59,105 nt of DNA, taken from the NCBI GenBank assembly GCA_964535215.1, contig CAZHST010000014.1:13297-72401 (forward strand). The letters are read 5' to 3'. The notes under the pieces were generated by a model. The model was not told the DNA's origin. It was given only the letters and a program-made list of their open reading frames with translations, and searched no databases. This DNA comes from an uncultured bacterium. GTDB taxonomy: Bacteria; Methylomirabilota; Methylomirabilia; Methylomirabilales; JACQHM01. Positions 51 through 33,562 of this stretch are shown here, piece by piece (within the stretch, counting starts at the first letter, position 1; each line of letters starts with the position of its first letter). The translations under genes and the position numbers were made by a program.

Positions 51-2180
51 ATGTCCCGTACCCTAAGGCGAATCGCCCCCAGGGGGAAGCGAAGGGGCGG
101 TGAGCTGAAGCGGGCCCTTGTCCTCGGCTCTGGGACAGCCTTCCTGGTCCTTGCCCAGGTCTTTGGCCTCTTTGAGACCCTGGAGCTGAAAAGCCTTGAC
201 GTCCGTTTTATATTTAGGGGGCCCAGGCAGCCTCGTTCTCCGATCCTCCTTGTCACCATTGACGAGGACTCCTTCGATGAGCTGGGCCAGGCCTGGCCCT
301 GGCCCCGGGATCTCCATGCCCGTCTCCTGGATCGGATCAGCGAGGGAAGACCGAAGGTCATCGGCCTGGACCTCCTCTTCGACGAGACCAAGGGGGAGGC
401 TGAGGATCGGGCCTTGACCCGGGCTGTCAAGCGGGCCGGAAACGTCGTCCTGGCCGGGATCTTCACGCAGGTTCAAGGCCCGTATGCGGTGAAGGAAGCC
501 TTCAAGGGCCCGTTCCCGGAGCTCCGGGAGGCGGCGGCAGGCATCGGCTTCGTGAACATTGACCTGGATCGGGATGCCCTGGTCCGGCGGGTTTCTCTGG
601 CCAGGACCTACCAGGATCGGCTCTACGGAAGCTTTGCTTGGCAGCTTGCTACTTTGATCGGGGATCGGCCCCCCGGACCTCCCCCCCATCGGCCGGTCCT
701 CATCAACTTCCGGGGCCCGGCCGGGACCTTCGAGACCATCCCCTACTACATCGTCTTGCGCGGGGAGGTGGATTCTTCCCGCTTCAAGGACAGGATCGTC
801 CTGATCGGGGCGGCCGCCCCTATCCTCCAGGACCTGCACCCGACCCCTTTCTCCCTCCAGCACCGGATGCCGGGGGTCGAGGTCCAGGCCAACCTCCTGG
901 ATACCCTCCTTCAAGGGGACCCCATCGTCGAGACACCCCTGGGGCTTCAGCTCCTGATCCTGGTGGTGTTGGTCATGATGGCCTCGTTCACCACCATCCG
1001 CTTCCGCCCCCTCCTTGCCTTCTTCTCCTCCCTTGTCCTGGTCCTTATCTATTCTGGAGCGACCTTCTACGCCTTTACCAGATATGATCTCTGGCTCCCC
1101 CTGGTCCCCCCCCTGGGGGGGATCGGCCTTGCCTTCGCGGGCCTCACCGTCGTCCGGTACATTGAGGAGGAGCGGGAGAAGCGGAGGCTCTCGCGCTACT
1201 TCTCCCCCCAGGTGGTGGAGGCGATCCTCCGGGAGGGGAAGGACGAGGCCTTGGCCAGCCGCCGGCGAGAGGTCACGGTCCTCTTCGCCGATATCCGTGA
1301 TTTCACCACCATCTCCGAGAAGCTGGCCCCCGAGGAGGTGGTGACCCTCCTCCGGGAGTACCTGACCGCCATGACGGAGATCGTCTTGAGGTATGATGGA
1401 ACCCTGGACAAGTATGTGGGGGACGCCATCATGGCCCTGTTCGGCGCCCCCTTCAGCCACGGCGATGATGCGGTCCGGGCGGTCCGGGCGGCCCTGGAGA
1501 TGCAGGAGCGGGCCCTGGCCCTCTCCCCCTCCTGGGAGGCCCGCTGCGACCGCCCTCTACGGATCGGGGTCGGGATCAACACAGGCGAGGCGGTGGTGGG
1601 GACCATCGGCTCCAAGCAGCGGTTAGAGTACACGGCCGTCGGGGACCCGGTGAACCTGGCCTCGCGGCTGGAAGGGATCACGAAGGAGTTTCAGGCCTCC
1701 ATCGTGATCAGCCAGACGACTTACGAGGCGGTCCAGGGACTCTTCCCCACCCGGTTGCTGGGGGAGATCAGGGTGAAGGGACGGGAGGCCCCCGTCAAGG
1801 TCTACACCGTGGAAAAGCCGGAGAAGCGGAAGGCCCCGAGGGTTGCCGTTGAGCTCCCGATCCTGTTTGAAGGGGGGGAGATCTCCTGGTATGGCTCCGT
1901 GAAAACCCTCAGCAAGGGTGGGGTTTGTGTGCGGAGCCCCAAGCCCTTGACCCTCCAGCAGGAGATCACCCTCCGCTTCAACCTGCCCCGCATCCCTCGG
2001 ACCTTCTCCGTCCGCGGGAGGGTGGTCTGGAGCCGGGAGGAGGAGGCAGGGATCGAATTCCTCGACCTGATGGCCGAGGAGGTGGAGGCCCTTGCGGAGT
2101 TCGTGAAGGGGCAGGGGGCGGGAAAGGCCAACCCTAAGATGCCCCTCACCCCGGGGCCCTTGAACCCGGAGCGCCCATGA
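51..2180 (+). CDS. CHASE2 sensor domain – transmembrane – class III adenylate/guanylate cyclase – C-terminal PilZ domain protein
   Basis: 709 aa ORF. The N-terminal region (LVTIDEDSFDELGQAWPWPRD) is typical of periplasmic CHASE2. Hydrophobic helices follow, then VTVLFADIRDFTTISE...YVGDAIMALFGAP, which is the class III cyclase catalytic core. The C-terminus has RKAPR (RxxxR) and TLSKGG (D/NxSxxG), the PilZ c-di-GMP binding signature. Confidence 0.8.
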   Translation: MSRTLRRIAPRGKRRGGELKRALVLGSGTAFLVLAQVFGLFETLELKSLDVRFIFRGPRQPRSPILLVTIDEDSFDELGQAWPWPRDLHARLLDRISEGRPKVIGLDLLFDETKGEAEDRALTRAVKRAGNVVLAGIFTQVQGPYAVKEAFKGPFPELREAAAGIGFVNIDLDRDALVRRVSLARTYQDRLYGSFAWQLATLIGDRPPGPPPHRPVLINFRGPAGTFETIPYYIVLRGEVDSSRFKDRIVLIGAAAPILQDLHPTPFSLQHRMPGVEVQANLLDTLLQGDPIVETPLGLQLLILVVLVMMASFTTIRFRPLLAFFSSLVLVLIYSGATFYAFTRYDLWLPLVPPLGGIGLAFAGLTVVRYIEEEREKRRLSRYFSPQVVEAILREGKDEALASRRREVTVLFADIRDFTTISEKLAPEEVVTLLREYLTAMTEIVLRYDGTLDKYVGDAIMALFGAPFSHGDDAVRAVRAALEMQERALALSPSWEARCDRPLRIGVGINTGEAVVGTIGSKQRLEYTAVGDPVNLASRLEGITKEFQASIVISQTTYEAVQGLFPTRLLGEIRVKGREAPVKVYTVEKPEKRKAPRVAVELPILFEGGEISWYGSVKTLSKGGVCVRSPKPLTLQQEITLRFNLPRIPRTFSVRGRVVWSREEEAGIEFLDLMAEEVEALAEFVKGQGAGKANPKMPLTPGPLNPERP

Positions 2181-3790
2181 TGACCAGGATGCTGTTCCCC
2201 CTCTTGGGAGGGATCGCCCTCTTCCTGTACGGGCTTCGGTTGGCCGGCGAGGGGTTCCAACGGACCGCCGCCGGGAGGCTCCGCCACCTCCTGTCCGCGA
2301 TCACCCGGAACCGGTTGATGGCGGCGGGGATGGGGGTGCTGATCACCCTGGTCCTCCAGTCCTCAGGGGCGATGGTGGGGATGCTGGTCCGATTTGCCGG
2401 ATCAGGGCTCCTCCAGCTCCCCCAGGCGATGGGGGTCATCCTGGGGGCGGATATCGGCACCACCTTGACCGTCCAGCTCATCGCCTTCCGGTTCTTCGAC
2501 CTTTCCTTTCTCTTCATCGGCTTCGGCTTCTTTACCATCTACCTGGCCAAGCGGCGGCGGTTCGCCGACCTCGGCCAGGGCCTCCTGGGCTTCGGGTTGC
2601 TCTTCTTGGGGATGAAGGTCATGGTGGAAGCCCTGGAACCTTTCAAGGGGGGCGGGCTTTTCCAGGAGGTGCTCCTTTCCCTGGGGGAGCAGCCTTTTCT
2701 GGTCATCCTCCTTTCGGCCATCTTCACAGGCCTTGTCGCCAGCTCGGCCGCGACCATTGGCTTCGCCCTGACCCTGGCCCATCAGGGGCTCCTCCCGCTT
2801 TCCGTCGCCATCCCCTGGATCTTTGGGGCAAACATCGGCACCTGCACCAGCTCGTTGGCCGCCAGCATGGGGGGAGGCACCGAGGCCAAGCGGGTGGCCG
2901 TTGCCCATATCCTCTTCAAGGTCCTGGGTGTCCTCCTTTTCCTCCCTTTGACCCACCCCTTTGCCCGGTTCGTCGGGATGACCGCCACCGACCCGGCCCG
3001 GCAGGTCGCCAATGCCCACACCCTGTTTAATGTCCTGATTGCTGTCCTGTTCCTGCCCTTTATCGGCTTGGGGGCAAAGGTGATCGCCAGGCTCGTCCCG
3101 GAGGAGCGGAGGGCCGAGGATCCGTTCAAACCCCGGTACCTGGACGAGCATCTCCTTGAGGCCCCGGCCCTGGCCCTGGCCCAGGCCACCCGGGAGGCCC
3201 TCCGGATCGCCGATATCGTCTCCGAGATGCTCCACCGAACCGGCGAGGCCCTCTTCCAGGACGACCAGGAGCTGATCGAGGCCATCGAGCGGAAGGATGA
3301 TCAGGTGGATGCCCTGGAGCGGGAGGTGAAGCGGTACCTCACCAAGCTCTCCCAGCAGTTGTTGACCGACGAGCAGTCCAGGAGGGAGGTGGCCATCCTC
3401 GCCTTTGTCAATGACCTGGAGAACATCGGGGATATCGTGGAGCGGAACCTGATGGAGCTGGCGAAGAAGCGGCTGTCCCAGGGGGCCACGTTCTCCGAGG
3501 AGGGGGTGAAGGAGCTCCGGGCGCTCCATGCCAAGGTTTGCCAGAACCTGGAGACGGCCATCTCGGCCTTCGCCAGCCACGACCCCTTCCTGGCCCAGAA
3601 GGTGCTGGACCGGCGCTCGGAGATTGGCCAGATGGAGCGAAGCTTCCGCCAATCCCACATCCAGCGCCTCCACGAGGGGCTGCCGGAGTCTATCGAGACC
3701 AGCGAGATCCACCTGGACATCCTGACGAACCTGAAGCGGATCAACTCCCACGTGAGCGCCATCGCCCACTCGATCCTGGAGGCCCTCTGA
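2177..3790 (+). CDS. Na+/phosphate cotransporter family protein (NptA-like) with C-terminal PhoU-like domain
   Basis: 537 aa polytopic membrane protein with the duplicated Na/Pi cotransporter repeat (GADIGTTLT.. / GANIGTCTSS) followed by a soluble helical PhoU-like tail. ATGA overlap with the upstream gene. Confidence 0.8.
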   Translation: MMTRMLFPLLGGIALFLYGLRLAGEGFQRTAAGRLRHLLSAITRNRLMAAGMGVLITLVLQSSGAMVGMLVRFAGSGLLQLPQAMGVILGADIGTTLTVQLIAFRFFDLSFLFIGFGFFTIYLAKRRRFADLGQGLLGFGLLFLGMKVMVEALEPFKGGGLFQEVLLSLGEQPFLVILLSAIFTGLVASSAATIGFALTLAHQGLLPLSVAIPWIFGANIGTCTSSLAASMGGGTEAKRVAVAHILFKVLGVLLFLPLTHPFARFVGMTATDPARQVANAHTLFNVLIAVLFLPFIGLGAKVIARLVPEERRAEDPFKPRYLDEHLLEAPALALAQATREALRIADIVSEMLHRTGEALFQDDQELIEAIERKDDQVDALEREVKRYLTKLSQQLLTDEQSRREVAILAFVNDLENIGDIVERNLMELAKKRLSQGATFSEEGVKELRALHAKVCQNLETAISAFASHDPFLAQKVLDRRSEIGQMERSFRQSHIQRLHEGLPESIETSEIHLDILTNLKRINSHVSAIAHSILEAL

Positions 3791-7527: not shown

Positions 7528-8285
7528 AAAGGTTCCCCCCCATCCTGAACGCTGGGTTCTGCATAATCCTCGCCCTGGCCCCGGATGCCTGGGGAGAAAA
7601 GGGCCTCTACCACATTGTCGAACCGGGTCAGAACCTCTTTCGGATCAGCCAGGCCTACCAGGTGCCCTTGAAGGTCCTGATGGAGAGAAACCGGCTGACC
7701 TCTTCTCACCTTTCCATCGGGCAGCGGCTGTTCATCCCAGGAGCCCAGGCCCGTATGAAAGTCGAACCCTTTAAGCCCCTTTCCTCAAGGGAGCGGGCTG
7801 CCCTCGAGGGTTCTCTCCGGGAGGAGAGATCTTCCCTGGCTCCTCTCCCAGGGAAGTCTGGGGATCGTCAACCTCCCCCTGACCTGATCTGGCCGCTCAT
7901 CGGGCCCATCAATTCCCCCTTCGGTCCAAGGGGGGGAAGGCTCCATGCCGGGCTGGATATCGGTTCCCCCTTCTACCAGGAGGTCCTCTCGGCGGCCGAT
8001 GGGGAGGTCATCTTTGCGGGGAACACGAACAACGGATTGGGAAGGGCGGTCCTGATCCGACACGGTGGGGAGGTGATCACCGTCTACGGCCATCTGTCCA
8101 TTATCATCGCCCGGGAAGGGGAGGCGGTGAAGCAGGGGCAGGCCATCGGAGGGGTAGGGAGCACAGGGAATGCCACCGGTCCCCACCTCCACTTCGAGGT
8201 CCGCCGTCATGGCCGGCCTGTCGACCCCATGCCCTTCCTGCCTCCCACCCTGGACGATCTGGTGGAAAAGCTCATCCGTCCCTAG
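7524..8285 (+). CDS. LysM domain-containing M23 family peptidase (secreted)
   Basis: Signal peptide, LysM (YHIVEPGQNLFRISQAY), M23 motifs (HAGLDIG...; TGNATGPHLHFEVR). Confidence 0.8.
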   Translation: MKRFPPILNAGFCIILALAPDAWGEKGLYHIVEPGQNLFRISQAYQVPLKVLMERNRLTSSHLSIGQRLFIPGAQARMKVEPFKPLSSRERAALEGSLREERSSLAPLPGKSGDRQPPPDLIWPLIGPINSPFGPRGGRLHAGLDIGSPFYQEVLSAADGEVIFAGNTNNGLGRAVLIRHGGEVITVYGHLSIIIAREGEAVKQGQAIGGVGSTGNATGPHLHFEVRRHGRPVDPMPFLPPTLDDLVEKLIRP

Positions 8286-8319
8286 AGGGGGCTGGTCGCC
8301 GGTGGCTGATCGTCCTGGT

Positions 8320-9414
8320 TCATCGGCCGGTTTCACCCCACGAGGGTTTGGTCAGGGCTTCGGCGACCAGGTCCCCCATCCTCTTGGTGCCTACCGGCGT
8401 CGTGCCTGGCTGGACCAGGTCTCCCGTCCGATAGCCCTGGTGGAGGACGTCTTCCACGGCCCTTTCCACGGCCAGGGCGGCCTCCTCGTGATTGAGCGAG
8501 TACCTGAGCAGCATGGCCGCCGAGAGGATGGCCGCCAGCGGGTTTGCCAGATCCCTGCCGGCGATGTCCGGGGCACTCCCGTGGACCGGTTCGTAGAGTC
8601 CCGGTCCGGTCCCCAGGCTTGCCGAGGGGAGGAGACCGATGGAGCCCACAATCATGGCCGCCTCGTCGCTTAACAGGTCCCCGAAGAGGTTGTCCGCCAG
8701 GATGACATCGAAGGGCTTAGGATCCCTGACAAGTTGCATGGCACAGTTGTCCGCGTACATGTGTTCGAGGGTCACCCCAGGGTAGCCCTCACCGACCTCC
8801 CGGACGACCCCCCGCCACAGCTCCGAGGTGGCCATCACGTTGGCCTTGTCCACGGAGGTGACCTTGCGCCTTCGTCTCAAGGCTGCCTGGAAGGCGACCT
8901 CAGCGATCCGTTTCACCTCGTGGGTCGTGTAGATGCAGGTATCCACCGCCCGCTCCCCTTCCCGGGTCTTCTCGATGCCTTTAGGCTCTCCGTAGTAGAT
9001 CCCCCCGGTCAGCTCCCTGACCACCAGGAGATCTGCCCCTTCCACCACTTCTCGTTTTAAGGGGGAAGCGTCAATCAGGGCGGGAAAGACCTTGGCCGGG
9101 CGGAGGTTGGCGTAGAGGCCCAGTTCTCGACGGAGGTTTAAGAGGCCTCGCTCAGGCCGGATGGGCGTTGAAAGGCCGTCCCATTTCGGTCCCCCAACAG
9201 CCCCAAAGAGGATGGCGTCTGATCCCTTGCAGAGGGTCAAGGTCTCCTCGGGAAGGGGGGAGCCTGTTGCGTCAATGGCCGATCCTCCCAAGAGACCCTC
9301 TTGGAACGTTAAAGACAGGTCAAAACGTTCGGCGGCGACCTTCAGCACCTTTACGGCCTCCTGGATGACCTCGGGGCCGATGCCGTCGCCGGGCAAGACC
9401 GCGATCTTGGGCAT
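8320..9414 (-). CDS. leuB: 3-isopropylmalate dehydrogenase
   Basis: [17 protein letters not shown]-terminus and full-length isocitrate/isopropylmalate dehydrogenase motifs. Confidence 0.9.
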
Positions 9415-9721: not shown

Positions 9722-11409
9722 TCACCGCAGAGCCAGGGCCAACACCTTCAGGTCATGCCAGACAGAGGAATACGCCTCCTGCTGCCACACGGCAAGGCCG
9801 TTGTGCCCAGGAAGCTTCCCCTCCAGCCGCTTCAGGCAAGCCCTGACCCCACGGGTCATCCCTCCTCCTTCCCTCGGGGTATCAGCATTGACCTTCTGGG
9901 TCAGGCTTTGCTTGATTTGGGCTACGAATTGTTGAAGCTCTTTCGTGACCCGTTCCTTAAAGCCCATCGCCCGGCGGCCTATGACCAGGGCCGCCGCGCC
10001 GTGCACCGGAACCCCATACCGCGCCCTGTACTTCCAGTACCCGATGGTGGAGGTGTGCCGGGCGGGCACAAGTCTCAAGGGCACCCTTTCCTTCACCGCC
10101 CTCCGGCACACCGCTTCTACCATCCTGGCAAAGGGAAAGTTGGAAGCCAGGCGGTTAAACGTTTTGTTGGTCTCCAGCCGGTCCTTGCCAAAGGCCAGCT
10201 CCTCCAGGACAAGGGGTTTGCCCAGGAAGGAGGCTGTGTCTCCCACGACTTTGGCTAAAACGCCGATCAGGTAGTCCCGCCGGAACCCCGACGCATAGGC
10301 CAGGTCGGGGAGTCTGATGGAGAGAAAGCCGTTGGGGGACGTGATGACCTGAAACTCCCCCTCATACTTCCCCAAGTTGCCGGGGTAAGGGACCCTGAAC
10401 CCTTCCGGCCACGGCTCCGGCTGGCCTGAAGCGCTGACCTGGCACAGGGCCACGCCGTCGGGGTTCGTGTCCAAAGCCAAACAGCCCTCCGTAAGGTCAG
10501 CCTCCGGCCCCTCCCCCAGAGCAAACGTCAGATGGACCAAATATCGCCCTTCCGGGGTGCGGATCAACTCCCCCGTGTAGGGCCGCTTCATGGCCAACCC
10601 TAGCCGCACCAGGTCCCGGTGCTTCTCCGGCAGCCACAACTTGCCCTCTACCCTGGGAGCGCGGCGCATCTTCGGCCGATGGCGTTGATCTTCGCCCACC
10701 TGCTCCGAAAGGTGTGAGACGGTCACCGCCAGACGAAACTCCCCATCCCGGAAGGACACCTTCAGGTTCGGGTTGCCGCCTTTGGTTTCGTCTCCCCGGG
10801 CATAAAGCCGGTTTTGGCGGGCGGCCCGCCACTCCTCCCGCGCGGCCCGGCCTTTGCAGACCCTCCTCCAGAGCTTCCGGCCGCCGAAGATCACCTTCGG
10901 GATGGTGCCGTTGTCCCGGTAAGCTCTCAGTTCGGCCAGCTTCTCCTCCAGGGACCCCGCACGCCTCTGGCGCCCCCTGACTGTAAGGCGCAGCTTCTCC
11001 AGTTCAGCAGGAGCAACCCCCTTCTTTTCGGCCTTGGCCAGCTTCTTCATGGCCAGGCCGAGCTTCTTCCTGGCCCGGCCAGCTTCTTTTCCGTCTCCTC
11101 TATCTCCAGCTCCAGCAGCTCTTTCTGAGAGTCCAGCAGGGCCTGCGCTTTCAACCGCGCGTCGTCCGCATACCGGGAGTTCAGCCCGAAGAGCTCCTGC
11201 CCCCGCTTCTTGACCTCATCGCGGGAGACGCCTTCCAGGAGCCGGTTGAAGGCCCACCGCTGGCAGGCACAGAAAAGCCGCATCTCCGTAACAAGAGGGT
11301 CTTCCTCACCCCGGCTCCACTCTGGCGACCGGAAGGCCGGGTAACTCTCCGGGAAGAACTCCCCACAGACGGTCAAGCTAACTTTGTCCTTCACCGGCTT
11401 CTTCGGCAT
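9722..11409 (-). pseudogene. tnpB: tnpB (OrfB_IS605/TnpB-like RNA-guided nuclease homolog), frameshifted and with degenerate RuvC-III/Zn-finger region
   Basis: The N-part ORF (11047-11409, LFCACQRWAFNRLL...) and the C-part ORF (9722-11050) are in frames offset by 1 nt, within a repetitive AAGAAGCTGGCC coiled-coil region. RuvC-I LALDTNPDG and RuvC-II LVLEELAFG are present. Where YTSQTC...C..C...DxNAAxNI is expected, the sequence reads RHTSTIGYWKYRARYGVPVHGAAALVIGRRA. There are no cysteines and no Asp. Confidence 0.6.
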
Positions 11410-12008
11410 TCCTTATCAGCTCCCGAAAGCCCTGCCGGATTTTCTTCCCACCCCTCGCCCCATACAGCCGGGCCGAAAACGAGGTGACGACGGCCAGCAG
11501 GTCCCTCACCAGTTCGGCATGCGCGTCTTCCGGCTCTTGCTCGGCGGTGGCGACGATCGCTACACCACAGTACCGCAGGTGCCCCTCAAGGTATTCGTCC
11601 CCGAACCTCGCCAGCCTGTCGGGATCTTCGAGAAGCAGCTTTTTGAACTCACCCCGTTCGGCGCTTTTTAGCACCCGTTCCAGGCCCCGGCGGTTCTGGG
11701 TTAACCCCGAAGCCACATCCGAATACTCTGCCACGACACGGTAGCCCTTCCCCCGTGCGTAGGCCCGCAGCCGCTCCCGTTGCCGTTCCAAATTTCCGGC
11801 CTCGGCCTGCTTCTTCGTAGACACCCGGGCATAGAGGACAACCGCGTCCGGCTCTGCCTTTATCCCTAAATATACGGTTGATTTCCCCCACCGGGTATCT
11901 CCGCTGGCCGCTGGGCAACCGTACTGGCCTAATCAGGCCCTGTTTTTCCCATGCCCGAAGCCTGTTCGGGTGTACACCTAGTCTCTTTGCTGCTTCTCCA
12001 ATGGACAT
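11378..12008 (-). pseudogene. tnpA: tnpA, IS607-type serine recombinase (MerR-like HTH + resolvase catalytic domain), disrupted by a frameshift
   Basis: The HTH MSIGEAAKRLGVHPNRLRAWEKQGLIRP..GEINRIF is in one frame. The catalytic domain GIKAEPDAVVLYARVSTKKQ... (active-site Ser) is in another frame. The junction is near 11850-11870. Confidence 0.6.
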
Positions 12009-12839: not shown

Positions 12840-14603
12840 ATGCAGAGATCCCGCAGGCACGTGCACATCGTGGTGGCCATCCTCACCTTCGTGGCCTTTG
12901 GCTGCGCCCAAACAGCCCGGTCGCTGGAAAAGACCCCTTCTATCTTGAGCGCCAGGGACCCCGGAGGGGTCCCACCCGTTGGGGACGTCAGGGGGATTGA
13001 CCAGCGTTCGTATTATGCCTATACCTTGAGCGTCCTCGCCGAGCTGAAAGGGGATGTCCAGGAGGCTATCCGCTGGCAGCGGGAGGCCTTGAAGTATGAT
13101 CCCCAATCGCTCTACATGCAGGTGAACCTTGCCTCCCTCTACTTGAAGGCTGGGGACTTTAAGGCCGCCATTGACATCGGGGAGGAGATCGTGGCGAGGG
13201 AGCCCGATTACCTCCCCGCGCACCTTCTCCTGGCCACGGCCTACCGGAACCTTCGGAATTTTCGGAAGGCTGAGCACTACTATCGGCAGGTGATCCGGTT
13301 GGATCCCACCCACGGGGAGGCGTATCAGGCCCTTGGGAACCTGTACATCGAGGCCAGGAGCTTCCCGGAGGCCATCGAGATCTACAAGAAGCTGGTAGAG
13401 ATCGAACCTGGCTCTCATCTGATCCGCTACAACCTGGGCCGCCTGTACCTCGAGATGAAGGACCAGGAGGAGGCGCGGCGGTACTTCCGGGAGGCCCTCT
13501 CCCTAGAGCCGGATTTTGAGCCAGCCGTCATCGCCCTGGCCTCGAGCTTCGAGGGCGAGGGCCGGTATGATGAAGCGTTGCAGGTGTATGAGGAGGCGCT
13601 GAAAGCGGACCCGGATCGCCGTGAGCTCAGGGAGCGGCTCGCCCAGCTCCTTTTCCGCCAGGGGAATCTCGATGCCGCGAGGAGGGAATACGAGACGCTC
13701 CTGGAGCAGGAGCCTGGCAATACGAACCTGAGGCTCCGGGTTGGGTTCCTCTACTACGAGCAGCAGGCTTACCCCGAGGCCCTGGCGACCTTCCGGGAGA
13801 TCCTGAACCAGGAGCCCGCCAACAAGGAGGCCCTCTACTATCTTGCGGTCACGTTGGAGGAGATGAAACAGTTTGACCAGGCCCTTGAAGCCTTCCAGAA
13901 GTTTGTCCCTCAGGATGCCCATTACGCCGATGCCCTGCTGCACCGAGGATACATCTACGGTCAGAAGGGGATGTACCAGGAGGCCCTGGACACCCTTTCA
14001 ACGGCTGAGAAGCTGAAGCCGGGAGAGGCCAGTATCCCTTACCTTATCGGTGTGGTCTACATGCAGCGGAAGGAGTATGGGGCGGCCATCAAGAGCTTGG
14101 AGAAGGCCGTTTCCCTGGACAAGGACAACGCCAACTACTATTACCAGCTCGGGGCGGCCTTCGAGCGGGATCACAAGATCGAGCAGGCGGAGGAGGCCTT
14201 TAGGCGGGTCTTGGAGCTCAACCCGAAACATGCCGATGCCTATAATTACCTCGGGTATATGTTTGCCGAGGCGGGGATCAAGCTGGACGAGTCCATCGCC
14301 TTGATCAAGAAGGCCTTGGAGCTGGATCCAGACAACGGGGCCTTTGTGGATTCTCTCGGCTGGGCCTACTTTAAAAAGGGGATGGTGGAAGAGGCCCTGG
14401 CCGAGCTTCAACGGGCCGTTCGCCTTCTGAAGCAGCCAGACCCTGTCGTCCTGGAGCACCTAGGCGATGTCTACTTCCAGAAGGGGATGATCAGGGAGGC
14501 GATCCAGGAGTGGGAAAAGGCGGTGAAGCTCGATCCGAGCAATGAAGGCCTCCTCAAGAAGCTAAAGCAGGCCAAGGAGCTCATTTCCAGGGAGGGGAGA
14601 TGA
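12840..14603 (+). CDS. tetratricopeptide-repeat lipoprotein
   Basis: Signal peptide with lipobox (FVAFGCAQ) followed by about 14 TPR units. Confidence 0.75.
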   Translation: MQRSRRHVHIVVAILTFVAFGCAQTARSLEKTPSILSARDPGGVPPVGDVRGIDQRSYYAYTLSVLAELKGDVQEAIRWQREALKYDPQSLYMQVNLASLYLKAGDFKAAIDIGEEIVAREPDYLPAHLLLATAYRNLRNFRKAEHYYRQVIRLDPTHGEAYQALGNLYIEARSFPEAIEIYKKLVEIEPGSHLIRYNLGRLYLEMKDQEEARRYFREALSLEPDFEPAVIALASSFEGEGRYDEALQVYEEALKADPDRRELRERLAQLLFRQGNLDAARREYETLLEQEPGNTNLRLRVGFLYYEQQAYPEALATFREILNQEPANKEALYYLAVTLEEMKQFDQALEAFQKFVPQDAHYADALLHRGYIYGQKGMYQEALDTLSTAEKLKPGEASIPYLIGVVYMQRKEYGAAIKSLEKAVSLDKDNANYYYQLGAAFERDHKIEQAEEAFRRVLELNPKHADAYNYLGYMFAEAGIKLDESIALIKKALELDPDNGAFVDSLGWAYFKKGMVEEALAELQRAVRLLKQPDPVVLEHLGDVYFQKGMIREAIQEWEKAVKLDPSNEGLLKKLKQAKELISREGR

Positions 14604-15385
14604 CGGTCAGGGCTCGGCTTCTCCCCTGGGGGGTCTTGGTGCTCATCGCCGGATGTGCCACCGTCCCCAGGATGCAGGAACTTCAGGGGACGATCCTTCC
14701 TGAAGGCCCGGTTCTGGAAAAGCTCCGGGCCTACGAGGAGCGGATCACCTCCCTGAAAGCCTTCGCCGACATCAAGATCACGAGAGGGGGGGAGAGCCTC
14801 AGGCTTCAGGAGGTCGCCCTGCTCTCCCCCCCCTCCCATCTCCGGCTGGAGGCGTTAGGGTTTGGGGGGCTTCCCACCTTTATCCTGGCCACCGATGGAG
14901 AGTGGCTGTACGCCCATTTCCTTCTCTCCCAGGAGTTCGTCAGGGCACGGGTGACCCCGAATAACCTTTTTGCGCTTACCGGTGTACGAGCCGCCCCCGA
15001 GCATGTCATCAGGATCCTCTCAGGGCTCCCCCCCCTCCCGCCCCAAAAGGGGGTTCTCAGATCCCTTGACGGCGGAAGGCGGACCTGGCTCGAGACCGAT
15101 GCGGGATCCTTCCAGCAGAGGATCTGGCTGGAGGGGGAGGCCTCCATCCAAGGCGGCGAGCTTTATCAGGATAAGGTCCTTACGTTAACCTTTACCTTCA
15201 AGGAGAAGATGAACCAGCAAGGGATCCCCTTCCCCTCCCAGATCACGTTCGAAAAACCCCGAGAGGGGCTCATGGTCGAGGTCACGTATCACCGGGTGGA
15301 CCTGGGCGCCCCCATCCCTCCTGCCGCCTTCACCCTGCCCCTGCCCAATGACGGCTCTACCCGCATCCTTGAGCTTGGATCGTAG
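14600..15385 (+). CDS. outer-membrane lipoprotein LolB-like protein
   Basis: Lipoprotein signal (LIAGCATVP). Position immediately upstream of ispE–prs matches the conserved lolB–ispE–prs arrangement. ATGA overlap with the upstream TPR gene. Confidence 0.55.
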   Translation: MTVRARLLPWGVLVLIAGCATVPRMQELQGTILPEGPVLEKLRAYEERITSLKAFADIKITRGGESLRLQEVALLSPPSHLRLEALGFGGLPTFILATDGEWLYAHFLLSQEFVRARVTPNNLFALTGVRAAPEHVIRILSGLPPLPPQKGVLRSLDGGRRTWLETDAGSFQQRIWLEGEASIQGGELYQDKVLTLTFTFKEKMNQQGIPFPSQITFEKPREGLMVEVTYHRVDLGAPIPPAAFTLPLPNDGSTRILELGS

Positions 15386-20323: not shown

Positions 20324-21728
20324 GGAGGCTCAGATGGCTGGGCAGCTTCGAGATCGCCGGACAGGGACCTTTGATCCGGTTCAAGAGCGGGTCCCCCCGC
20401 AGGCCCTCGAAGCCGAGGTGGCGGTCCTGGGGGCCATCCTGCAGGAGCGGGAGGCGCTGCTCAAGAGCCTGGAGGTCCTCAAGCCGGAACACTTCTACCG
20501 GGAGGCCCACCGGAAGATCTACGCCGCCGCCATCAGCCTCTTTGAGCGAAACGAGCCGGTGGACCTCATCACCTTGACCCACGAGCTCAGCCGTCGGGGG
20601 GAGCTGGAGGCGGTGGGGGGCGCCGCCTTCCTGACCCAGCTCCTGGAGGCGGTCCCCACGGCCGCCAACGTGGTCTACCATGCCAGGATCGTTCGGGACA
20701 AGGCCGTTCTCCGGGAGCTGATCCGGGTGGCCACTGACCTGGTGGCGGAGGGGTATGCGGAGCGGGAGGATGTGGATGGGCTCCTCGACCTAGCAGAACG
20801 AAAGGTGTTCGAGATCTCCCAGGATCGGGTCTCCCGTACCTTCACCCCCCTGAAGCATGTCCTGAAGGAGACCTTCGAGTTAATCGAGAGGCTTCACGGT
20901 CGGAAAAGCCTGGTCACCGGTGTCCCGACAGGGTTCCGGGAGTTTGACGAGAAAACGGCCGGGCTCCAGCCTTCAGATCTCATCGTCATTGCCGGACGGC
21001 CCTCGATGGGGAAGACAAGTTTCGCCTTGGGGATCGCCCAGCACGCGGCCATCGTGGAACGGTACCCGGTGGCGATCTTCAGCCTGGAGATGTCCATGGA
21101 GCAGGTGGCCCTCAGGATGCTCTGCTCCGAGGCCCGTGTGGATTCGAACAAGGTAAGGACAGGCTATTTGAGCGGCGAGAAGGACTGGCGGCCCCTGATT
21201 GATGCCGCCAGTCGTCTCTCAGAGGCTCCCATCTTTATCGACGACACCCCGGGGAACACGGTCCTCGAGATGCGGGCCAAGGCGAGAAGGCTGAAGGCCG
21301 AGCAGAATCTTCAACTGGTGATCATCGATTATCTTCAGCTCATCCAAGGGAGGGGGAGGGCCGAGAACCGCCAGCAGGAGATCGCCGAGATCTGCCGGGG
21401 GCTGAAGGCCATGGCCAAGGAGCTGAACGTCCCGGTGGTGGCCCTTTCCCAGCTCTCCCGACGGGTCGAGGAGCGGGAGGAGGGGAGGCCTCAGCTAGCG
21501 GATCTCCGGGAGTCAGGAGCCATCGAGCAGGACGCGGATCTGGTCGCCTTCCTCTACCGACCAGGCCTCTACAAGAAGCCGAAGGACCCATCGGCCGCCG
21601 ACGACCGGACGACGGAGGTCATTATCGCCAAGCAGCGAAATGGCCCCACCGGGACGGTGAAGCTGGCCTTCCTGCGAGAGTATGCCAGGTTTGAACCGCT
21701 GGAGGAGGTCTACGGGGAACCCGCTTGA
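20304..21728 (+). CDS. dnaB: replicative DNA helicase
   Basis: N-terminal PPQALEAEVAVLGAIL, Walker A GRPSMGKTSFALG, conserved DnaB C-terminal motifs. Confidence 0.9.
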   Translation: MSSRRPEEAQMAGQLRDRRTGTFDPVQERVPPQALEAEVAVLGAILQEREALLKSLEVLKPEHFYREAHRKIYAAAISLFERNEPVDLITLTHELSRRGELEAVGGAAFLTQLLEAVPTAANVVYHARIVRDKAVLRELIRVATDLVAEGYAEREDVDGLLDLAERKVFEISQDRVSRTFTPLKHVLKETFELIERLHGRKSLVTGVPTGFREFDEKTAGLQPSDLIVIAGRPSMGKTSFALGIAQHAAIVERYPVAIFSLEMSMEQVALRMLCSEARVDSNKVRTGYLSGEKDWRPLIDAASRLSEAPIFIDDTPGNTVLEMRAKARRLKAEQNLQLVIIDYLQLIQGRGRAENRQQEIAEICRGLKAMAKELNVPVVALSQLSRRVEEREEGRPQLADLRESGAIEQDADLVAFLYRPGLYKKPKDPSAADDRTTEVIIAKQRNGPTGTVKLAFLREYARFEPLEEVYGEPA

Positions 21729-21731
21729 AGA

Positions 21732-22697
21732 TCAGGGATCCGGGAGGAGCAGGCTTTTCAGCCACACGTGGAGGGCGATCAGGAACCTTCGGGATCGGGG
21801 CAGGGTGATCCGCTGTTGGAACACGTTGTACGAGGCCTCCTCGATCTCCTGGAGGAGCTTGAAGTAGATCCCTCGCATGATCTCCGCGGCCGGCATCGAG
21901 CGGCGATCCTTCTCGGCCAAGGCAGCTTCGGCCTTTCGGAAGTATTCTCTGGCCCTGCTCCCCTGAAACCTCATCAGCTCCACAAAAGAAGCGTTGTAGC
22001 GACCCTTGAGGAGATCCTCCTCAGAATAGCCAAATCGCCGGAGTTCTCCCTGGGGGAGGTAGATCCTTCCCCGCGTGGCATCAACGGCAAGATCCCGCAT
22101 GATGTTCGTCAGCTGGAAGGCGATGCCTAGGTTCTCAGCGTACACCTTGGCGGTAGGGCTTGTGTAGCCGAAGATCTCGATGCAGATGAGCCCGACGGCT
22201 GAGGCGACCCGGTAGCAGTATTCGTAAAGCTCCTCGAAGGTCTCATACCGGGCCTTCCTGAGATCCATCTCCACCCCATCCACCACCAGCTCGAAATACG
22301 CCTTCGGAATCGCGAACCATCTCAGGACCTCCGAAAGCTTCATCGTGATGGGGTGGGCCGCCTCCCCACGGAAGCACCGGTCCAGCTCCTCCCGCCACCG
22401 CTTGAGTTGCTCCTCTGCCTCCTCGGGCCGTGGATTTTCATCAACGATGTCATCCAGGTGGCGGCAGAAGGCATAGACGGCATAGATGGCGTCCCGCTTT
22501 TTCTTCGGCAGGAAGAGGAAGGCGTAGTAGAAGTTGGAGCGGCTCCCCTTTGTCAATTTCCTGCTGTAGCTTCCAACGTCCAAGGGGATTTCCTCCCTCT
22601 TCAGACCCTTTTCCAAGCCCGTTTCAAGCCGGGAATTGTCACAAATTGTAGTATGGGTGGGGGGGAAGTCAAGGGAAAATCGGCCTGCTATGGGCAT
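21732..22697 (-). CDS. squalene/phytoene synthase family protein (HpnD/HpnC/SQS-like)
   Basis: YSRKLTKGSRSNFYYAFLFLP, YAFCRHLDDIVDE, NIMRDLAVD Asp-rich motifs. The start is uncertain; the listed ORF extends further upstream. Confidence 0.75.
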   Translation of the reverse strand: MPIAGRFSLDFPPTHTTICDNSRLETGLEKGLKREEIPLDVGSYSRKLTKGSRSNFYYAFLFLPKKKRDAIYAVYAFCRHLDDIVDENPRPEEAEEQLKRWREELDRCFRGEAAHPITMKLSEVLRWFAIPKAYFELVVDGVEMDLRKARYETFEELYEYCYRVASAVGLICIEIFGYTSPTAKVYAENLGIAFQLTNIMRDLAVDATRGRIYLPQGELRRFGYSEEDLLKGRYNASFVELMRFQGSRAREYFRKAEAALAEKDRRSMPAAEIMRGIYFKLLQEIEEASYNVFQQRITLPRSRRFLIALHVWLKSLLLPDP

Positions 22698-22828
22698 CCT
22701 CCTTGACCGGGGAAAGGGGAACTTGCTATCGTAGGTGCGTTTGCCAACCCTTTTCCAGGTTCCCCGGGTTGATCCGGTTTGTTGGGTTCCTGGGGACCGG
22801 GTCAGCCCTGGGAGGACGGAGGTGTCTG

Positions 22829-23749
22829 ATGGCCGGAAGCAGCGCTCCCCAACCTCGGGTGTTTCCCCCTCCACCCCCCACGGAGAGCCCCTTGGAGGGG
22901 GTCATTGACTTTCATGTGCATACCGGTCCCGATGTGTTCGGCCGGAGTTTGAATGATCTGGAGGTGGCCCGGAAGGCGGCCGAAGCCAGGATGGGGGCTC
23001 TCGTTTTGAAGAACCACGTGACCGAGACCTCCGGGCGGGCCTACCTCGCCAGGCTCCAGGTTTCGGGGGTCAAGATCTTTGGCGGCATCGTTTTGAACAG
23101 AGCCGTGGGTGGGATCAACCCCGATGCGGTCCGGTGGATGATCCGGATGGAAGGGGGGTTGGGGAAGGTGGTGTGGCTTCCCACTTTCGACGCGGACCAT
23201 CACGTCAAGTACTTTCAGGAGGCCTCTGACGGCATCCGGGTCGTCGAGGGGGGGAAGGTCCTCACCCAGGTCGAAGAGGTCATGCGGATCTGTGCCGATC
23301 ACGATCTCGTCCTCCACACCGGTCACGCCTCGGCCCAGGAGGCCCTGATCCTGATCGAGCGGGCCAGGGAGCTAAATGTTCGTAACATCGTCGTCACCCA
23401 TGCCCAACTGGCCGTCGTGGGCATGTCTGTCCCGGAGATGAAACAGGCCGCTCAGATGGGGGCCTACCTGGAGATCGCCTACATCGGTGACCTGATGGGG
23501 GAAACTGCTCACCTGGAGTGGATGCGTCAGTGGAAGCGGGTCAGCATCGTCGAATACGCCAAGGCCATTAAGGCGGTAGGGGCCAGGCACTTCATCTTAA
23601 GCACCGACCTCGGTCAAACGGGCAATCCTTCCCATGTGGACGGGTACAAGGTCCTGATCGCCGGTCTCCTGAAAGAGGGGATTTCGGCGAAAGAGATTGA
23701 CCTGATGGCCAGGAAGAACCCTGCCCGGCTTCTGGGGCTCAAGCTCTAA
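22829..23749 (+). CDS. amidohydrolase-superfamily TIM-barrel metal-dependent hydrolase
   Basis: DFHVHTGPD ... HVKYF ... LHTGHA ... STDLGQ metal-ligand pattern. Preceded by GGAGGacGGAGG. Divergent from the squalene synthase gene. Confidence 0.5.
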   Translation: MAGSSAPQPRVFPPPPPTESPLEGVIDFHVHTGPDVFGRSLNDLEVARKAAEARMGALVLKNHVTETSGRAYLARLQVSGVKIFGGIVLNRAVGGINPDAVRWMIRMEGGLGKVVWLPTFDADHHVKYFQEASDGIRVVEGGKVLTQVEEVMRICADHDLVLHTGHASAQEALILIERARELNVRNIVVTHAQLAVVGMSVPEMKQAAQMGAYLEIAYIGDLMGETAHLEWMRQWKRVSIVEYAKAIKAVGARHFILSTDLGQTGNPSHVDGYKVLIAGLLKEGISAKEIDLMARKNPARLLGLKL

Positions 23750-23774
23750 CCTTTCCCCTGGGGCGCGCTGGAGA

Positions 23775-24575
23775 TCACCCTCCAACACCAGGGTAGAAGG
23801 TCCTGGGAGAGGAAGCGTCCGCCTCGAGAGGCAGCCAGGAGAGGAAGTGGAGGAGAAAGGGCGCAAGGGCCCGAAGGGCAGCTCCGCTCGTCTCTTTAAG
23901 GCGCCAGAGGGAAGGGCCAACCTTTGGGCAGGCCAGAAGGGTCAGAAGGACCTTAAGGGGAGACACTTCCCCTTTCCTCCCCGTGAGCCGGTTAAAGTCC
24001 ATCCCCAATCGTTGATCGGAGGTGTCAGAGACGACACGGATAGCCAGGAAGGGGAGACGGGCTTGAAAGGCGATCTGGGCCACGGCGGCACTCTCCAGAT
24101 CAGCGGCAAGGGCTCCCGATCGGCCGGCCCCTCGTTTCTCCTCAGGTTCTATGAGGATCCGAGCCGACGTAAGCAGGGTCCCCTGACGGTAAGGGATCTC
24201 AAGGGCCTCGGCCGTTTCCCTGGCAAGCCTGAGCAAAAGGGGGGATGAGGGGAGCGGGCAGGGATCGGAGGAGGTCTGGTCGAGGATCTGTTCACCCAGG
24301 ATGATCTCACCGGGCCGGAGGTCCGGCTGAAGGGCCCCGGCGAGGCCAGTGGAAAGGAGGGTTGAAGGGCTAAAGCCTTCTACCAAAGTGGTGGCGGCGT
24401 GTCGGGTCCGCCCTCTGCCCATGCCGCTTGCCACGAGGACGATCCTCTGGCCTCCCAAGCTTCCGGTGAGAAACGAAAACCCTTGACGGTCCTCCCTCTT
24501 CCTCCCCTCAAGCTTCTTCCCCAGACCTCTCGTCTCCCGCTTGAGGGCCATCACGATGCCGATCGGCCGGTCCAT
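23775..24575 (-). CDS. hpnG: hopanoid-associated phosphorylase/nucleosidase (PNP_UDP_1 family, HpnG-like)
   Basis: Purine nucleoside phosphorylase family fold (VLVASGMGRGRTRHAA...AADLESAAVAQ). Located immediately downstream of shc. Confidence 0.65.
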   Translation of the reverse strand: MDRPIGIVMALKRETRGLGKKLEGRKREDRQGFSFLTGSLGGQRIVLVASGMGRGRTRHAATTLVEGFSPSTLLSTGLAGALQPDLRPGEIILGEQILDQTSSDPCPLPSSPLLLRLARETAEALEIPYRQGTLLTSARILIEPEEKRGAGRSGALAADLESAAVAQIAFQARLPFLAIRVVSDTSDQRLGMDFNRLTGRKGEVSPLKVLLTLLACPKVGPSLWRLKETSGAALRALAPFLLHFLSWLPLEADASSPRTFYPGVGG

Positions 24576-26443: not shown

Positions 26444-26456
26444 CTCGCGTGAACCG

Positions 26457-27263
26457 TTACAACTTTTGACCGTGAAGCCCGACCCTCAGATCGCTGATGG
26501 CGACCGTCTGGGAGCCGGGGTCTGGACCCTTCTGTCCGTTCTTCACCCGGACGATGGAGAACCCGAGCAGGGGGAGGGAGAGGGCGAGGCCGATGCCCCC
26601 CAGGATCGGCTCGCCGATCCAGAAGGTCATGCCAACCCCGGAGAGAAGGATGAAGAAGTAGAGGAAAGGACCTCCAAGCCCGGGGGGCTTCGCCCCTGCC
26701 GGTACCCCGCTCAGGGACCGATCCATTACCTCGAAGAGCAGGAAGATCACCGCCCCCACGACCCCCCACCCCAGGAAGTTCGAGAGGGGAACCCCGAAAT
26801 AGATCCCTCCTCCTGGATAGTCATAGATCTTCCCTAAGAACCATCGGTCCCCCCGGAGGGCCAGGGGATCAATGATGAGATCCAAGAGGACGAACAGGAG
26901 GGTGGCTAGGGAGAGGATCCTCCAGCGCCGGAGCCCTTTCCAAGCGGGTTGGAGGAGGCGGAGGGCAAGGGTGTAGCTGGCATAGGCGAGGAAGGTAAAG
27001 GAGAGGGAGTCCATAAAAGGGATATTCAGAATCCAGAGTTCCCTCCCCTTCGTCCCGGGGATGTACACGTAGAGGCCGAAAGGGAAACCGATCCTGGTGG
27101 AGGAGAATTCGGCGGCGAAGGCGACTCCCCAGCCCAGGAAGGTGAGGAGGAGGGTCCGCTTCCAGCCCCAGGATCGGATCCCTGAGACGAAGAAGATCGC
27201 AAAAAAGATGAAGACATACGGCCTGAGCATCAGGGTAGAGAGCAAAAGCTTCAGGGACTCCAT
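26457..27263 (-). CDS. polytopic membrane protein of unknown function (possibly DUF422/carotenoid-biosynthesis-associated family)
   Basis: About 270 aa, 7–8 predicted TM helices. Embedded in the hopanoid operon between the FPP synthase gene and shc. Confidence 0.45.
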   Translation of the reverse strand: MESLKLLLSTLMLRPYVFIFFAIFFVSGIRSWGWKRTLLLTFLGWGVAFAAEFSSTRIGFPFGLYVYIPGTKGRELWILNIPFMDSLSFTFLAYASYTLALRLLQPAWKGLRRWRILSLATLLFVLLDLIIDPLALRGDRWFLGKIYDYPGGGIYFGVPLSNFLGWGVVGAVIFLLFEVMDRSLSGVPAGAKPPGLGGPFLYFFILLSGVGMTFWIGEPILGGIGLALSLPLLGFSIVRVKNGQKGPDPGSQTVAISDLRVGLHGQKL

Positions 27264-27282
27264 CGTCCTCCCGCATCCCTTC

Positions 27283-29077: not shown

Positions 29078-29089
29078 GGCAAAGACCTC

Positions 29090-30103: not shown

Positions 30104-30117
30104 GGTCCCTGCGGCTC

Positions 30118-31149: not shown

Positions 31150-31157
31150 CTTGCACC

Positions 31158-32156: not shown

Positions 32157-32212
32157 CCCCAAGCTCCCATCCACCGCTGACGTCCGCAGGTCATCGGCAG
32201 TCAACGTCTGGT

Positions 32213-33535: not shown

Positions 33536-33562
33536 AGCGTTCATGGACGGGGCTTGTCGGCC

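Follow-up and report, generated by a model that had tools for sequence, protein, structure and literature searches.

A CHASE2-class III cyclase-PilZ fusion family of Methylomirabilota that may couple c-di-GMP to cAMP synthesis

The window, by which we mean the whole 59-kb stretch of DNA analysed here, carries at positions 51-2180 (+ strand) a complete coding sequence with an ATG start codon and a TGA stop codon. A GGAGG motif is located 6 nt upstream of the ATG. The encoded protein has 709 residues, and an exact copy of it exists in public collections (P0001). According to Pfam and AF2, the protein is built in the order CHASE2, three transmembrane (TM) helices, class III cyclase and PilZ. The three domains named in a preliminary description of the sequence, CHASE2 (PF05226), Guanylate_cyc (PF00211) and PilZ (PF07238), were each detected above the curated cut-off. 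The AF2 model of the whole protein, calculated as a monomer, reached a mean pLDDT of 89.7. The architecture proposed in that description was borne out by the profile HMMs, by the confident model and by the fold matches of the PilZ domain. Rfam found neither a riboswitch nor any other significant match in the gene or its leader.

The extracytoplasmic sensor domain CHASE2 occupies residues 32-309 (positions 144-977, + strand; 203.5 bits, E 5.8e-60) and was modelled with pLDDT values mostly above 90. In the AF2 model, one helix lies before this domain (residues 15-37) and three helices follow it (residues 297-317, 320-345 and 352-381). The N-terminal helix (positions 93-161, + strand) coincides with a hydrophobic stretch before CHASE2 and would contain the first transmembrane segment. 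The three later helices (residues 297-381, positions 939-1193, + strand) are likely to form a membrane bundle together with a signalling helix. CHASE2 would thus have one membrane helix on its N-terminal side and three on its C-terminal side, with membrane insertion and topology deduced from the model. CyaD1 of Sinorhizobium meliloti becomes constitutively active once its CHASE2 is removed, so that CHASE2 serves as a gate there (PMC5498481).

The catalytic domain (residues 404-587, positions 1260-1811, + strand) scored 94 bits with the Guanylate_cyc profile, whose cut-off is 21.9. The cyclase core is intact, as described before: all six catalytic residues are present, namely D414 and D458 for metal binding, K454 and T528 for substrate binding, and N535 and R539 for transition-state stabilization. 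Each of them is kept in at least 90 of 92 family members (see below), and D414, D458, N535 and R539 in 91-92 of these 92 relatives. The catalytic domain of Pseudomonas aeruginosa CyaB (PDB 3r5g) matched with E 4e-42 and 41-42% identity by sequence, and with a TM score of 0.90 (normalised to the target) and an rmsd of about 1.5 A by Foldseek against the modelled domain. In CyaB the residues aligned with K454 and T528 are likewise Lys and Thr, while the guanylate cyclase Cya2 of Synechocystis has Glu and Gly at these sites. Thr in place of the substrate Asp, as in T528, is what we take to be the IIIb signature of class III cyclases. Because the Lys454/Thr528 pair is that of CyaB, we predict adenylate rather than guanylate cyclase activity for the enzyme, and its product is presumably cAMP. 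The earlier wording "cAMP/cGMP synthesis" can thus be narrowed: inspection of the specificity residues favours cAMP and speaks against cGMP, since the pair is of the ATP type.

The PilZ domain covers residues 591-686 (positions 1821-2108, + strand). It scored 60.3 bits (E 2.4e-16, gathering cut-off 22.5) in the Pfam scan of the whole protein and 64.7 bits when the tail was scanned in isolation. Six beta-strands (residues 598-670) and a helix (residues 675-688) were modelled with a pLDDT of about 90 (89.4 for the tail alone), and the tail is confidently predicted to be a canonical PilZ barrel with one long C-terminal helix. The best structural matches in Foldseek were the c-di-GMP-bound Alg44 (4rt0) and MapZ (5xly), both with a TM score of 0.82, followed by further c-di-GMP-bound domains of BcsA, MotI and YcgR. 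In contrast, the non-binding XC1028 reached a TM score of only 0.51. Among NCBIfam models the best match was TIGR02266, a PilZ-like paralogous domain of Myxococcus and Geobacter, but its 47.9 bits are below the cut-off of 68.7 and the tail is not a member. The protein ends with a disordered extension (residues 691-709, positions 2121-2177, + strand; pLDDT below 50), which is its least conserved part. In the 15 codons of this extension that can be compared with L003, the locus of a close relative, 11 differences are non-synonymous and 5 are synonymous (dN/dS 0.68, from few sites).

The preliminary description assigned both halves of the PilZ signature to this tail. The first half stands. RKAPR at residues 593-597 (positions 1827-1841, + strand) is a true RxxxR motif, which begins 6 residues past the last cyclase strand within a 10-residue flexible linker (pLDDT about 69); the PilZ profile accepts the tail, and neither of the two Arg residues varies in the family. 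The second half holds in part. TLSKGG at residues 619-624 (positions 1905-1922, + strand) matches the hSxxG part of the consensus [D/N]hSxxG, with L620, S621 and G624 present, but position 619 is Thr (codon ACC) instead of Asp or Asn. T619 is located 22 positions after R597 (21 residues between), which is the same offset as from R13 to D35 in MapZ. Thr at the D/N position is rare, occurring in 2 of 221 domains in a broad PilZ sample (about 1%). Since Thr replaces D/N, c-di-GMP binding by this protein is less certain than first assumed. From its motifs the tail is nevertheless a candidate c-di-GMP receptor, and the Thr619 variant deserves particular caution. PilZ domains within fusion proteins have been reported to keep c-di-GMP binding.

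The fusion is shared by a large family. Among the best 120 homologue clusters, 92 of the 119 near-full-length proteins (at least 560 aa) have the CHASE2-cyclase-PilZ architecture. These at least 92 clusters come mostly from metagenome-assembled genomes (MAGs) of Methylomirabilota (NC10/Rokubacteria). R593, R597 and G624 are invariant in 92 of 92 members, while the PilZ tails as a whole are only 17-50% identical. The three-domain match is therefore far beyond chance, the same protein being present in 92 homologues with these three residues unchanged. Position 619 is occupied by Asp in 75 members, Asn in 15 and Thr in 2 (D/N in 90 of 92), and the Ser of the second motif (position 621) is found in 82 of 92. 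The window protein, P0002 and P0271 make up a subclade in which all three members have Thr619. P0271, the closest relative, is a full-length protein of 706 aa in which Ser621 is also changed to Gly.

Selection on the domains of the Thr subclade was estimated against L003, which offered few substitutions, and the comparison was repeated against L088. At a dS of about 0.6, dN/dS against L088 was 0.29 for PilZ and 0.27 for the TM region; the other three folded domains all had slightly lower values than PilZ. PilZ in the Thr subclade is under purifying selection. Among close relatives, however, PilZ has been lost repeatedly, which implies that it is dispensable for the basic function.

Across bacteria as a whole the fusion is scarce. 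In a sample of at least 600 stretches from a genome collection, short of a full census, 2 of 80 CHASE2-cyclase loci carried a PilZ tail, and the cyclases of loci from other phyla stopped near query residue 585-600. A profile of the PilZ tail searched against 1.84 billion representatives retrieved mostly generic multi-PilZ proteins, and the cyclase-containing matches all belonged to the same family or were its fragments. The fusion had earlier been called uncommon. This is right across bacteria, but within Methylomirabilota it forms a large conserved family.

The next gene (positions 2177-3790, + strand) encodes a Na/Pi cotransporter with PhoU domains (Na_Pi_cotrans 170 bits, PhoU 86 bits) and shares an ATGA overlap with the cyclase gene. 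The same neighbour is present in L003 and L088, and the two genes are probably in one operon. A FecR gene (40.9 bits) is located directly upstream of the L003 orthologue. In L001 the C-terminal end of a FecR gene lies just before the window start, so that FecR is outside the window itself, and FecR was also found in L002, L004, L008 and L089. An extracytoplasmic FecR-domain neighbour is a frequent partner of CHASE2 but not a strict requirement. FecR genes and an MBL-fold PDEase_II/Apyc1-like gene were considered as PilZ-specific partners and rejected, as both also flank PilZ-less CHASE2 cyclases of other phyla, and neither lies inside the window. Most of the larger ORFs of the 59-kb window were scanned for GGDEF, EAL, HD-GYP and CRP genes, and none was detected; they included neither a diguanylate cyclase nor a phosphodiesterase gene. 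Further PilZ genes are present in sister genomes, such as the REC-PilZ gene of L089.

Taken together, we favour with moderate confidence a reading in which c-di-GMP binding at the linker between cyclase and PilZ allosterically tunes CHASE2-gated cAMP synthesis. The protein would be a class IIIb adenylate cyclase that sits in the membrane as a homodimer and integrates two inputs. The first would be an extracytoplasmic signal sensed by CHASE2, probably with participation of the neighbouring periplasmic FecR-domain protein. The second would be c-di-GMP inside the cell, whose level the C-terminal PilZ would read. On the model of BcsA and YcgR/PlzD, c-di-GMP would wrap the RxxxR linker against the PilZ barrel, and the barrel would thereby be repositioned against the catalytic dimer and change the cAMP output, up or down. 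The allosteric coupling, and with it the direct control by c-di-GMP claimed at the outset, is thus proposed from known PilZ systems. The two-input reading is supported by the Pfam domains, the conserved catalytic residues, the PilZ fold, the invariant ligand residues, the MapZ-like spacing, the purifying selection, the c-di-GMP binding of PA2989 despite its Ser at the D/N position, the binding reported for other PilZ fusions and the further PilZ genes of sister genomes. It is weakened by Thr619, by the relatively high dN/dS of PilZ, by its repeated loss and by the lack of c-di-GMP enzymes among the window genes scanned.

Rather unlikely, in our estimate, is that c-di-GMP binding by the PilZ of the window lineage (the window protein, P0002 and P0271) is gone or much reduced. 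The domain would then act independently of ligand, in protein-protein interaction or autoregulation, like the eponymous PilZ proteins of Xanthomonas and Pseudomonas. The replacement common to all three proteins, its rarity among PilZ domains, the additional Ser to Gly change in P0271 and the slightly elevated PilZ dN/dS agree with such a loss. So do the best PDB sequence matches of the tail, which are non-binding XC1028-type PilZ proteins, although these matches are weak (E about 0.01) and the fold search placed the tail much nearer to c-di-GMP-bound canonical domains than to XC1028. Moreover, the non-binding PilZ proteins are without RxxxR, which is intact here, and Leu620, Ser621, Gly624, Trp660 and Gly667 are all retained. 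PA2989 has Ser at the same position and still binds c-di-GMP. Because Thr619 is rare at a ligand-contacting site and P0271 has also lost Ser621, the affinity for c-di-GMP may be lowered or lost in the Thr subclade.

We give a lower probability to a PilZ domain that binds c-di-GMP without regulating catalysis. It would then control localisation, oligomerisation or the recruitment of a partner, or the protein would be a c-di-GMP effector with an incidental cyclase. The C-terminal helix of PilZ is a known protein-interaction surface, as in MapZ-CheR1, and would suit such a role. However, the RxxxR motif adjoins the catalytic domain as it does in the linkers of regulated PilZ enzymes and adaptors, and the catalytic residues are strictly conserved together with those of PilZ. 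Very improbable is that the fusion arose as an error of assembly or gene calling, or that the enzyme is a guanylate cyclase. In favour of these readings, the source contig is metagenome-assembled, the L003 gene of the closest relative is apparently split and the CHASE2 cyclase Cya2 makes cGMP. Against them, assemblies of independent origin (NCBI, JGI, ENA and Logan) contain the same continuous ORF in at least 92 clusters, the L003 split is a frame change at an ambiguous base and not a real truncation or pseudogene, as full-length P0271 exists, and the substrate residues are the Lys/Thr of CyaB rather than the Glu/Gly of Cya2.

Going beyond the favoured reading of a c-di-GMP-tuned adenylate cyclase, one may speculate that the family is the first enzyme-level allosteric relay from c-di-GMP to cAMP. 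In the window subclade, a change from Asn to Thr in the motif that contacts the base would then have retuned the affinity or shifted the specificity to another cyclic dinucleotide as the gene moved beside the Na/Pi cotransporter-PhoU gene. We regard this extended scenario as a long shot.

No nucleotide messengers of bacteria are more widespread than cAMP and c-di-GMP, and each is known to influence the other. The links between them described in the literature that we found are either transcriptional or go from cAMP to the synthesis of c-di-GMP. In the literature searched, no published description of a PilZ-cyclase fusion and no study of c-di-GMP signalling in Methylomirabilota was found, and the word "cyclase" is absent from a PilZ survey. 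The fusion, conserved across an uncultured phylum, may represent direct control of the synthesis of one second messenger by another. If this is true, a single protein would provide the mechanism for c-di-GMP-to-cAMP coupling and would act as a three-way integrator, in which a signal from outside (through CHASE2), the c-di-GMP of the cell and the output of cAMP meet. For Methylomirabilota (NC10/Rokubacteria), which are uncultured and environmentally important, it would also be a first way into the study of second-messenger signalling. As everything lies in one polypeptide, the coupling is testable with a recombinant cytoplasmic fragment, for which the natural Asp, Asn and Thr variants of the family and its PilZ-less relatives are built-in controls.

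The sensor-TM-cyclase architecture is common to the window protein, the adenylate cyclases CyaD1, CyaD2 and CyaK of S. meliloti and the guanylate cyclase Cya2 of Synechocystis (PDB 2w01), whose catalytic domain is about 40% identical to that of the window protein. Extracytoplasmic proteins with FecR or TPR domains are associated with these CHASE2 cyclases as well as with the present family. Unlike the window protein, none of the four has a C-terminal PilZ. CyaB (class IIIb) is the closest solved catalytic domain and has the same Lys/Thr, metal and transition-state residues; the 3r5g construct is the 198-residue catalytic domain alone, so the comparison is mute on any tail. The membrane domain of CyaB is MASE2 and not CHASE2.

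On the PilZ side, BcsA (PDB 4p00) and Alg44 carry a canonical PilZ barrel and helix fused to an output protein, with TM scores of 0.62-0.82 to the tail. The PilZ of BcsA follows the catalytic domain, as it does in the window protein, and c-di-GMP binding at the RxxxR linker relieves auto-inhibition. The outputs of BcsA and Alg44 are polysaccharide synthesis and secretion rather than another second messenger, and both have the regular D/N residue where the window protein has Thr. YcgR, PlzD (VCA0042) and MotI, represented among the fold matches by 5y6f, 2rde and 5vx6, have RxxxR in an inter-domain linker like the window protein, and c-di-GMP bound there draws their two domains together. Their N-terminal partner is a PilZ-like domain without enzymatic activity, whereas here PilZ is fused to a cyclase. 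The same two messengers are connected in Leptospira by a cAMP-dependent diguanylate cyclase, which, as cited in PMC7288161, works in the opposite direction, from cAMP to c-di-GMP synthesis. In P. putida, c-di-GMP and FleQ control the transcription of cyaA (PMC8125075). That link is transcriptional, whereas in the present family the putative c-di-GMP receptor is fused to the predicted cAMP synthase itself.

The cyclase gene runs from position 51 to 2180 on the forward strand of the window. Its ATG start lies 6 nt downstream of a GGAGG, and the ORF listing gives a product of 709 residues. Pfam HMM search of this protein identified CHASE2 (residues 32–309, 203.5 bits), Guanylate_cyc (residues 404–587, 94 bits) and PilZ (residues 591–686, 60.3 bits against a cut-off of 22.5, and 64.7 bits when the tail was scanned by itself), all far above the curated cut-offs. 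The preliminary description had proposed exactly this three-domain protein; since the domains exceed their cut-offs and both quoted PilZ peptides are present, the observation is real. Of the two signature halves it claimed, RKAPR (residues 593–597, nt 1827–1841, forward strand) is an RxxxR motif. TLSKGG (residues 619–624, nt 1905–1922, forward strand) is present, but falls short of [D/N]xSxxG because its first position is Thr (codon ACC). Apart from this strict D/N criterion, all three domains are genuine members of their known families.

The AlphaFold2 model, for which a family alignment of 92 sequences was the input, was confident (mean pLDDT 89.7, pTM 0.70). It comprises an N-terminal helix (residues 15–37), the mixed alpha/beta CHASE2 domain, three long helices (297–317, 320–345 and 352–381), the cyclase domain, a lower-confidence linker (588–597, pLDDT about 69), six PilZ beta-strands (598–670), the PilZ C-terminal helix (675–688) and a disordered tail (691–709). 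Six strands followed by a helix is also how canonical PilZ has been defined (Galperin and Chou, bioRxiv 10.1101/814665). The PilZ tail was also modelled by itself (pLDDT 89.4), and this model served as query for a Foldseek search of the PDB. The top matches were c-di-GMP-bound PilZ domains, Alg44 (4rt0, TM 0.82, E 3e-7) and MapZ (5xly), and BcsA, MotI, PA0012, YcgR, PlzD and PlzA came next. The non-binding PilZ of XC1028, which is the best PDB match by sequence alone, though a weak one, reached a TM of only 0.51. In MapZ, D35 stands 22 positions after R13; T619 stands at the same offset from R597 (21 residues between).

The PilZ tails of the family share 17–50% identity with that of the window protein (mean column identity 37%). 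R593, R597 and G624 are invariant (92/92), Ser621 is kept in 82 of the 92, and Trp660, Gly667 and Phe670 are nearly invariant. At position 619, Asp is found in 75 members, while 15 others have Asn and 2 have Thr. If the tail had been selected for c-di-GMP binding, this is the conservation one would expect. Thr is confined to the window protein and the sequences closest to it, P0002 (75% identity) and P0003/P0271 (about 89%), and P0271 has Ser621 changed to Gly in addition. The sister sequences of this subclade have Asn, whose codon AAC is one transversion from ACC. Thr is rare at this position, since it occurs in only 2 of 221 broadly sampled PilZ domains with intact RxxxR (D 127, N 84, S 2).

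The main rival to c-di-GMP control is that binding was weakened or lost in the Thr lineage and that PilZ there is a ligand-independent module. We consider this unlikely. PA2989, with Ser at the D/N position, binds c-di-GMP experimentally (Galperin and Chou, bioRxiv 10.1101/814665), so by analogy Thr619 would not necessarily be disabling. Identity between the window protein and P0002 is 72% in PilZ, 78% in CHASE2, 74% in the TM region and 83% in the cyclase. The Nei-Gojobori dN/dS against the relative in locus L088, at dS of about 0.5–0.65, is 0.29 for PilZ, 0.21 for CHASE2, 0.27 for TM and 0.17 for the cyclase; the comparison with locus L003 offers too few substitutions to draw on. Sequence comparison indicates that PilZ is still maintained in the Thr subclade.

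We lean, with some reserve, towards a dual-input adenylate cyclase, controlled by CHASE2 from outside and by c-di-GMP through PilZ. CHASE2, probably with a FecR-domain protein, would gate the cyclase from outside the cell. c-di-GMP would bind to PilZ at the RxxxR linker and on the face of the barrel, and the bound ligand would fix the barrel against the catalytic domain, which would alter the active sites at the dimer interface. Such fixing would be expected because RxxxR starts six residues past the last cyclase strand. A non-catalytic role of the bound ligand is a minor alternative.

At E ≤ 1e-10, 2459 relatives of the window protein were found among 5.8 billion proteins. Among the best 120 clusters, 119 were near full length (at least 560 aa); all three domains were present in 92 of these, and 27 ended after the cyclase. 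Named sources were mostly MAGs labelled as candidate division NC10, Rokubacteria or Methylomirabilota, and judging by these names the window probably belongs to the same phylum. Family proteins are already public under generic names, e.g. 'CHASE2 domain-containing protein' and 'adenylate cyclase'. The minor possibility that the fusion is an artefact is contradicted by its occurrence in many independent assemblies. Among 80 listed CHASE2-cyclase loci, a sample from species-representative genomes of many phyla, the PilZ tail was found only in L008 (Methylomirabilota) and L010 (Rokubacteria). A tail-only profile run against 1.84 billion representatives gave 33,044 matches, which represent the general PilZ superfamily. 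In the best 150 of them, every cyclase-containing protein was a member or fragment of the same CHASE2 family, and no other sensor-cyclase-PilZ combination was seen. A rough neighbour-joining tree, built on the CHASE2-cyclase part, scatters PilZ-less relatives among PilZ-bearing ones, which suggests repeated loss, or possibly gain, of PilZ. Some 'PilZ-less' relatives appear to carry decaying tail remnants. P0046 (677 aa) ends '...EKRQTPGARLEAPLTSID...' with disrupted RxxxR spacing, and in L010 (6715–7232) PilZ is split across two reading frames; both are consistent with ongoing PilZ loss in some lineages.

The six residues that a homodimeric class III cyclase requires are all present, namely D414 and D458 (metal), K454 and T528 (substrate) and N535 and R539 (transition state), and each is kept in at least 90 of 92 relatives. 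In the class III classification, Thr at the second substrate position goes with subclass IIIb. The closest solved catalytic domain is that of P. aeruginosa adenylate cyclase CyaB (E 4e-42, 41–42% identity; fold match with TM 0.90 normalised to target, rmsd about 1.5 Å), which has the same Lys and Thr pair, whereas in the same alignment Glu and Gly occupy these two positions in Synechocystis Cya2 (2w01), a guanylate cyclase linked to CHASE2. Inspection of the specificity residues, as the preliminary description had proposed, thus leads to the prediction of a Lys/Thr-type (IIIb) adenylate cyclase. A guanylate cyclase is a minor alternative, contradicted by this pair.

The window begins 50 nt 5' of the cyclase gene. 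Directly upstream of the cyclase in the syntenic locus L003 is a gene for a FecR-domain protein (8147–9019, 290 aa, Pfam 40.9 bits), itself preceded by that of a TPR protein. The Logan contig L001 reaches 159 nt further upstream than the window and encodes the C-terminal end of the FecR counterpart (1–100). The FecR-domain protein is likely the sensing partner in the window's lineage, missing here because the window starts so close to the cyclase. Family members in L002, L004, L008 and L089 likewise have FecR-domain genes beside them. These neighbours agree with the literature: CHASE2 sensors are accompanied by periplasmic proteins of the FecR or LysM-FecR kind (PMC5192318), and the CHASE2 cyclases of S. 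meliloti act upstream of FecR- and TPR-domain proteins, which are Clr/cAMP-regulated targets, while one of these cyclases, CyaD1, becomes constitutively active once CHASE2 is deleted (PMC5498481).

Many diverged family members are divergently paired with a gene for a 254-aa metallo-beta-lactamase-fold protein (L002 7139–7903, L004 5153–5917, L006 5192–5956) that matches PDEase_II (42 bits) and Apyc1 (Anti-Pycsar), a candidate cyclic-nucleotide phosphodiesterase. Since it also directly follows PilZ-less CHASE2 cyclases of Betaproteobacteria (L033, L057, L060, L062, L070, L072, L076 and L082), it partners CHASE2 cyclases generally, in what looks like a conserved cyclase/phosphodiesterase pair. 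This gene is absent from the window. In the Thr subclade, a Na/Pi cotransporter-PhoU gene comes right after the cyclase instead; in the window (2177–3790) its ATG overlaps the cyclase TGA stop by 4 nt (ATGA). This adjacency is kept in the two closest relatives (L003 and L088) and not in more distant members, and a functional link with phosphate transport is possible. Genes for a PEP-synthase-regulatory-type kinase/pyrophosphorylase, a Band 7 protein and an enoyl-CoA hydratase follow. The window ORFs scanned include no gene of the GGDEF, EAL, HD-GYP or CRP type, and Rfam gave no match in the cyclase gene or its leader. In the sister-clade locus L089, a REC-PilZ response-regulator gene (583–1413) precedes the cyclase gene by 5 kb, so other PilZ receptors exist in such genomes.

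Elsewhere in the window, a degenerate IS607-type element occupies 9722–11824 (reverse strand). Its serine-recombinase transposase (11378–11824; NF033518, 113.6 bits) lacks the N-terminal part, as the match is restricted to profile positions 63–186. The following TnpB gene is apparently split into an N-terminal-domain ORF (11047–11409, reverse strand, 119 aa, TIGR01765 41 bits) and a second ORF (9722–11050, reverse strand, 441 aa) whose C-terminal TnpB match is only weak (27.5 bits) and for which Pfam gave nothing. A hopanoid and membrane-lipid gene cluster at about 21700–40000 encodes, by Pfam, a squalene/phytoene synthase (21732–22874), a PNP_UDP_1 phosphorylase (23775–24575), an MMPL transporter (37150–39987), a lysyl-PG-synthase-like TM protein and a CDP-alcohol phosphatidyltransferase; by eye, the 630-aa ORF at 24551–26443 is a putative squalene-hopene cyclase. 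Beyond the cluster are an MlaC/OEP pair and a PEP-mutase-nucleotidyltransferase fusion (48323–50059), which suggests phosphonate-modified lipids or glycans. Three ORFs of 261–408 aa had no Pfam match (33958–35181 and 43241–44470, reverse strand; 14600–15385, forward strand), and the first two had no NCBIfam match.

The CHASE2-cyclase-PilZ combination appears undescribed. Phrase searches of one searchable literature library found nothing on the fusion, which is not proof of novelty, and no paper on c-di-GMP in Methylomirabilota. The links between the two messengers found in that library run through transcription, as with FleQ on cyaA (PMC8125075), or from cAMP to c-di-GMP synthesis, the latter as cited in PMC7288161. 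The family would offer a plausible node for the direct coupling of two major messengers, one that lends itself readily to testing, but this coupling rests wholly on sequence inference, and the window copy itself carries an atypical binding motif. The models for such coupling are BcsA as well as YcgR and PlzD, in which the mechanism works through an inter-domain linker; c-di-GMP control is inferred by analogy with these, and all three are among the fold matches of the window protein's tail.
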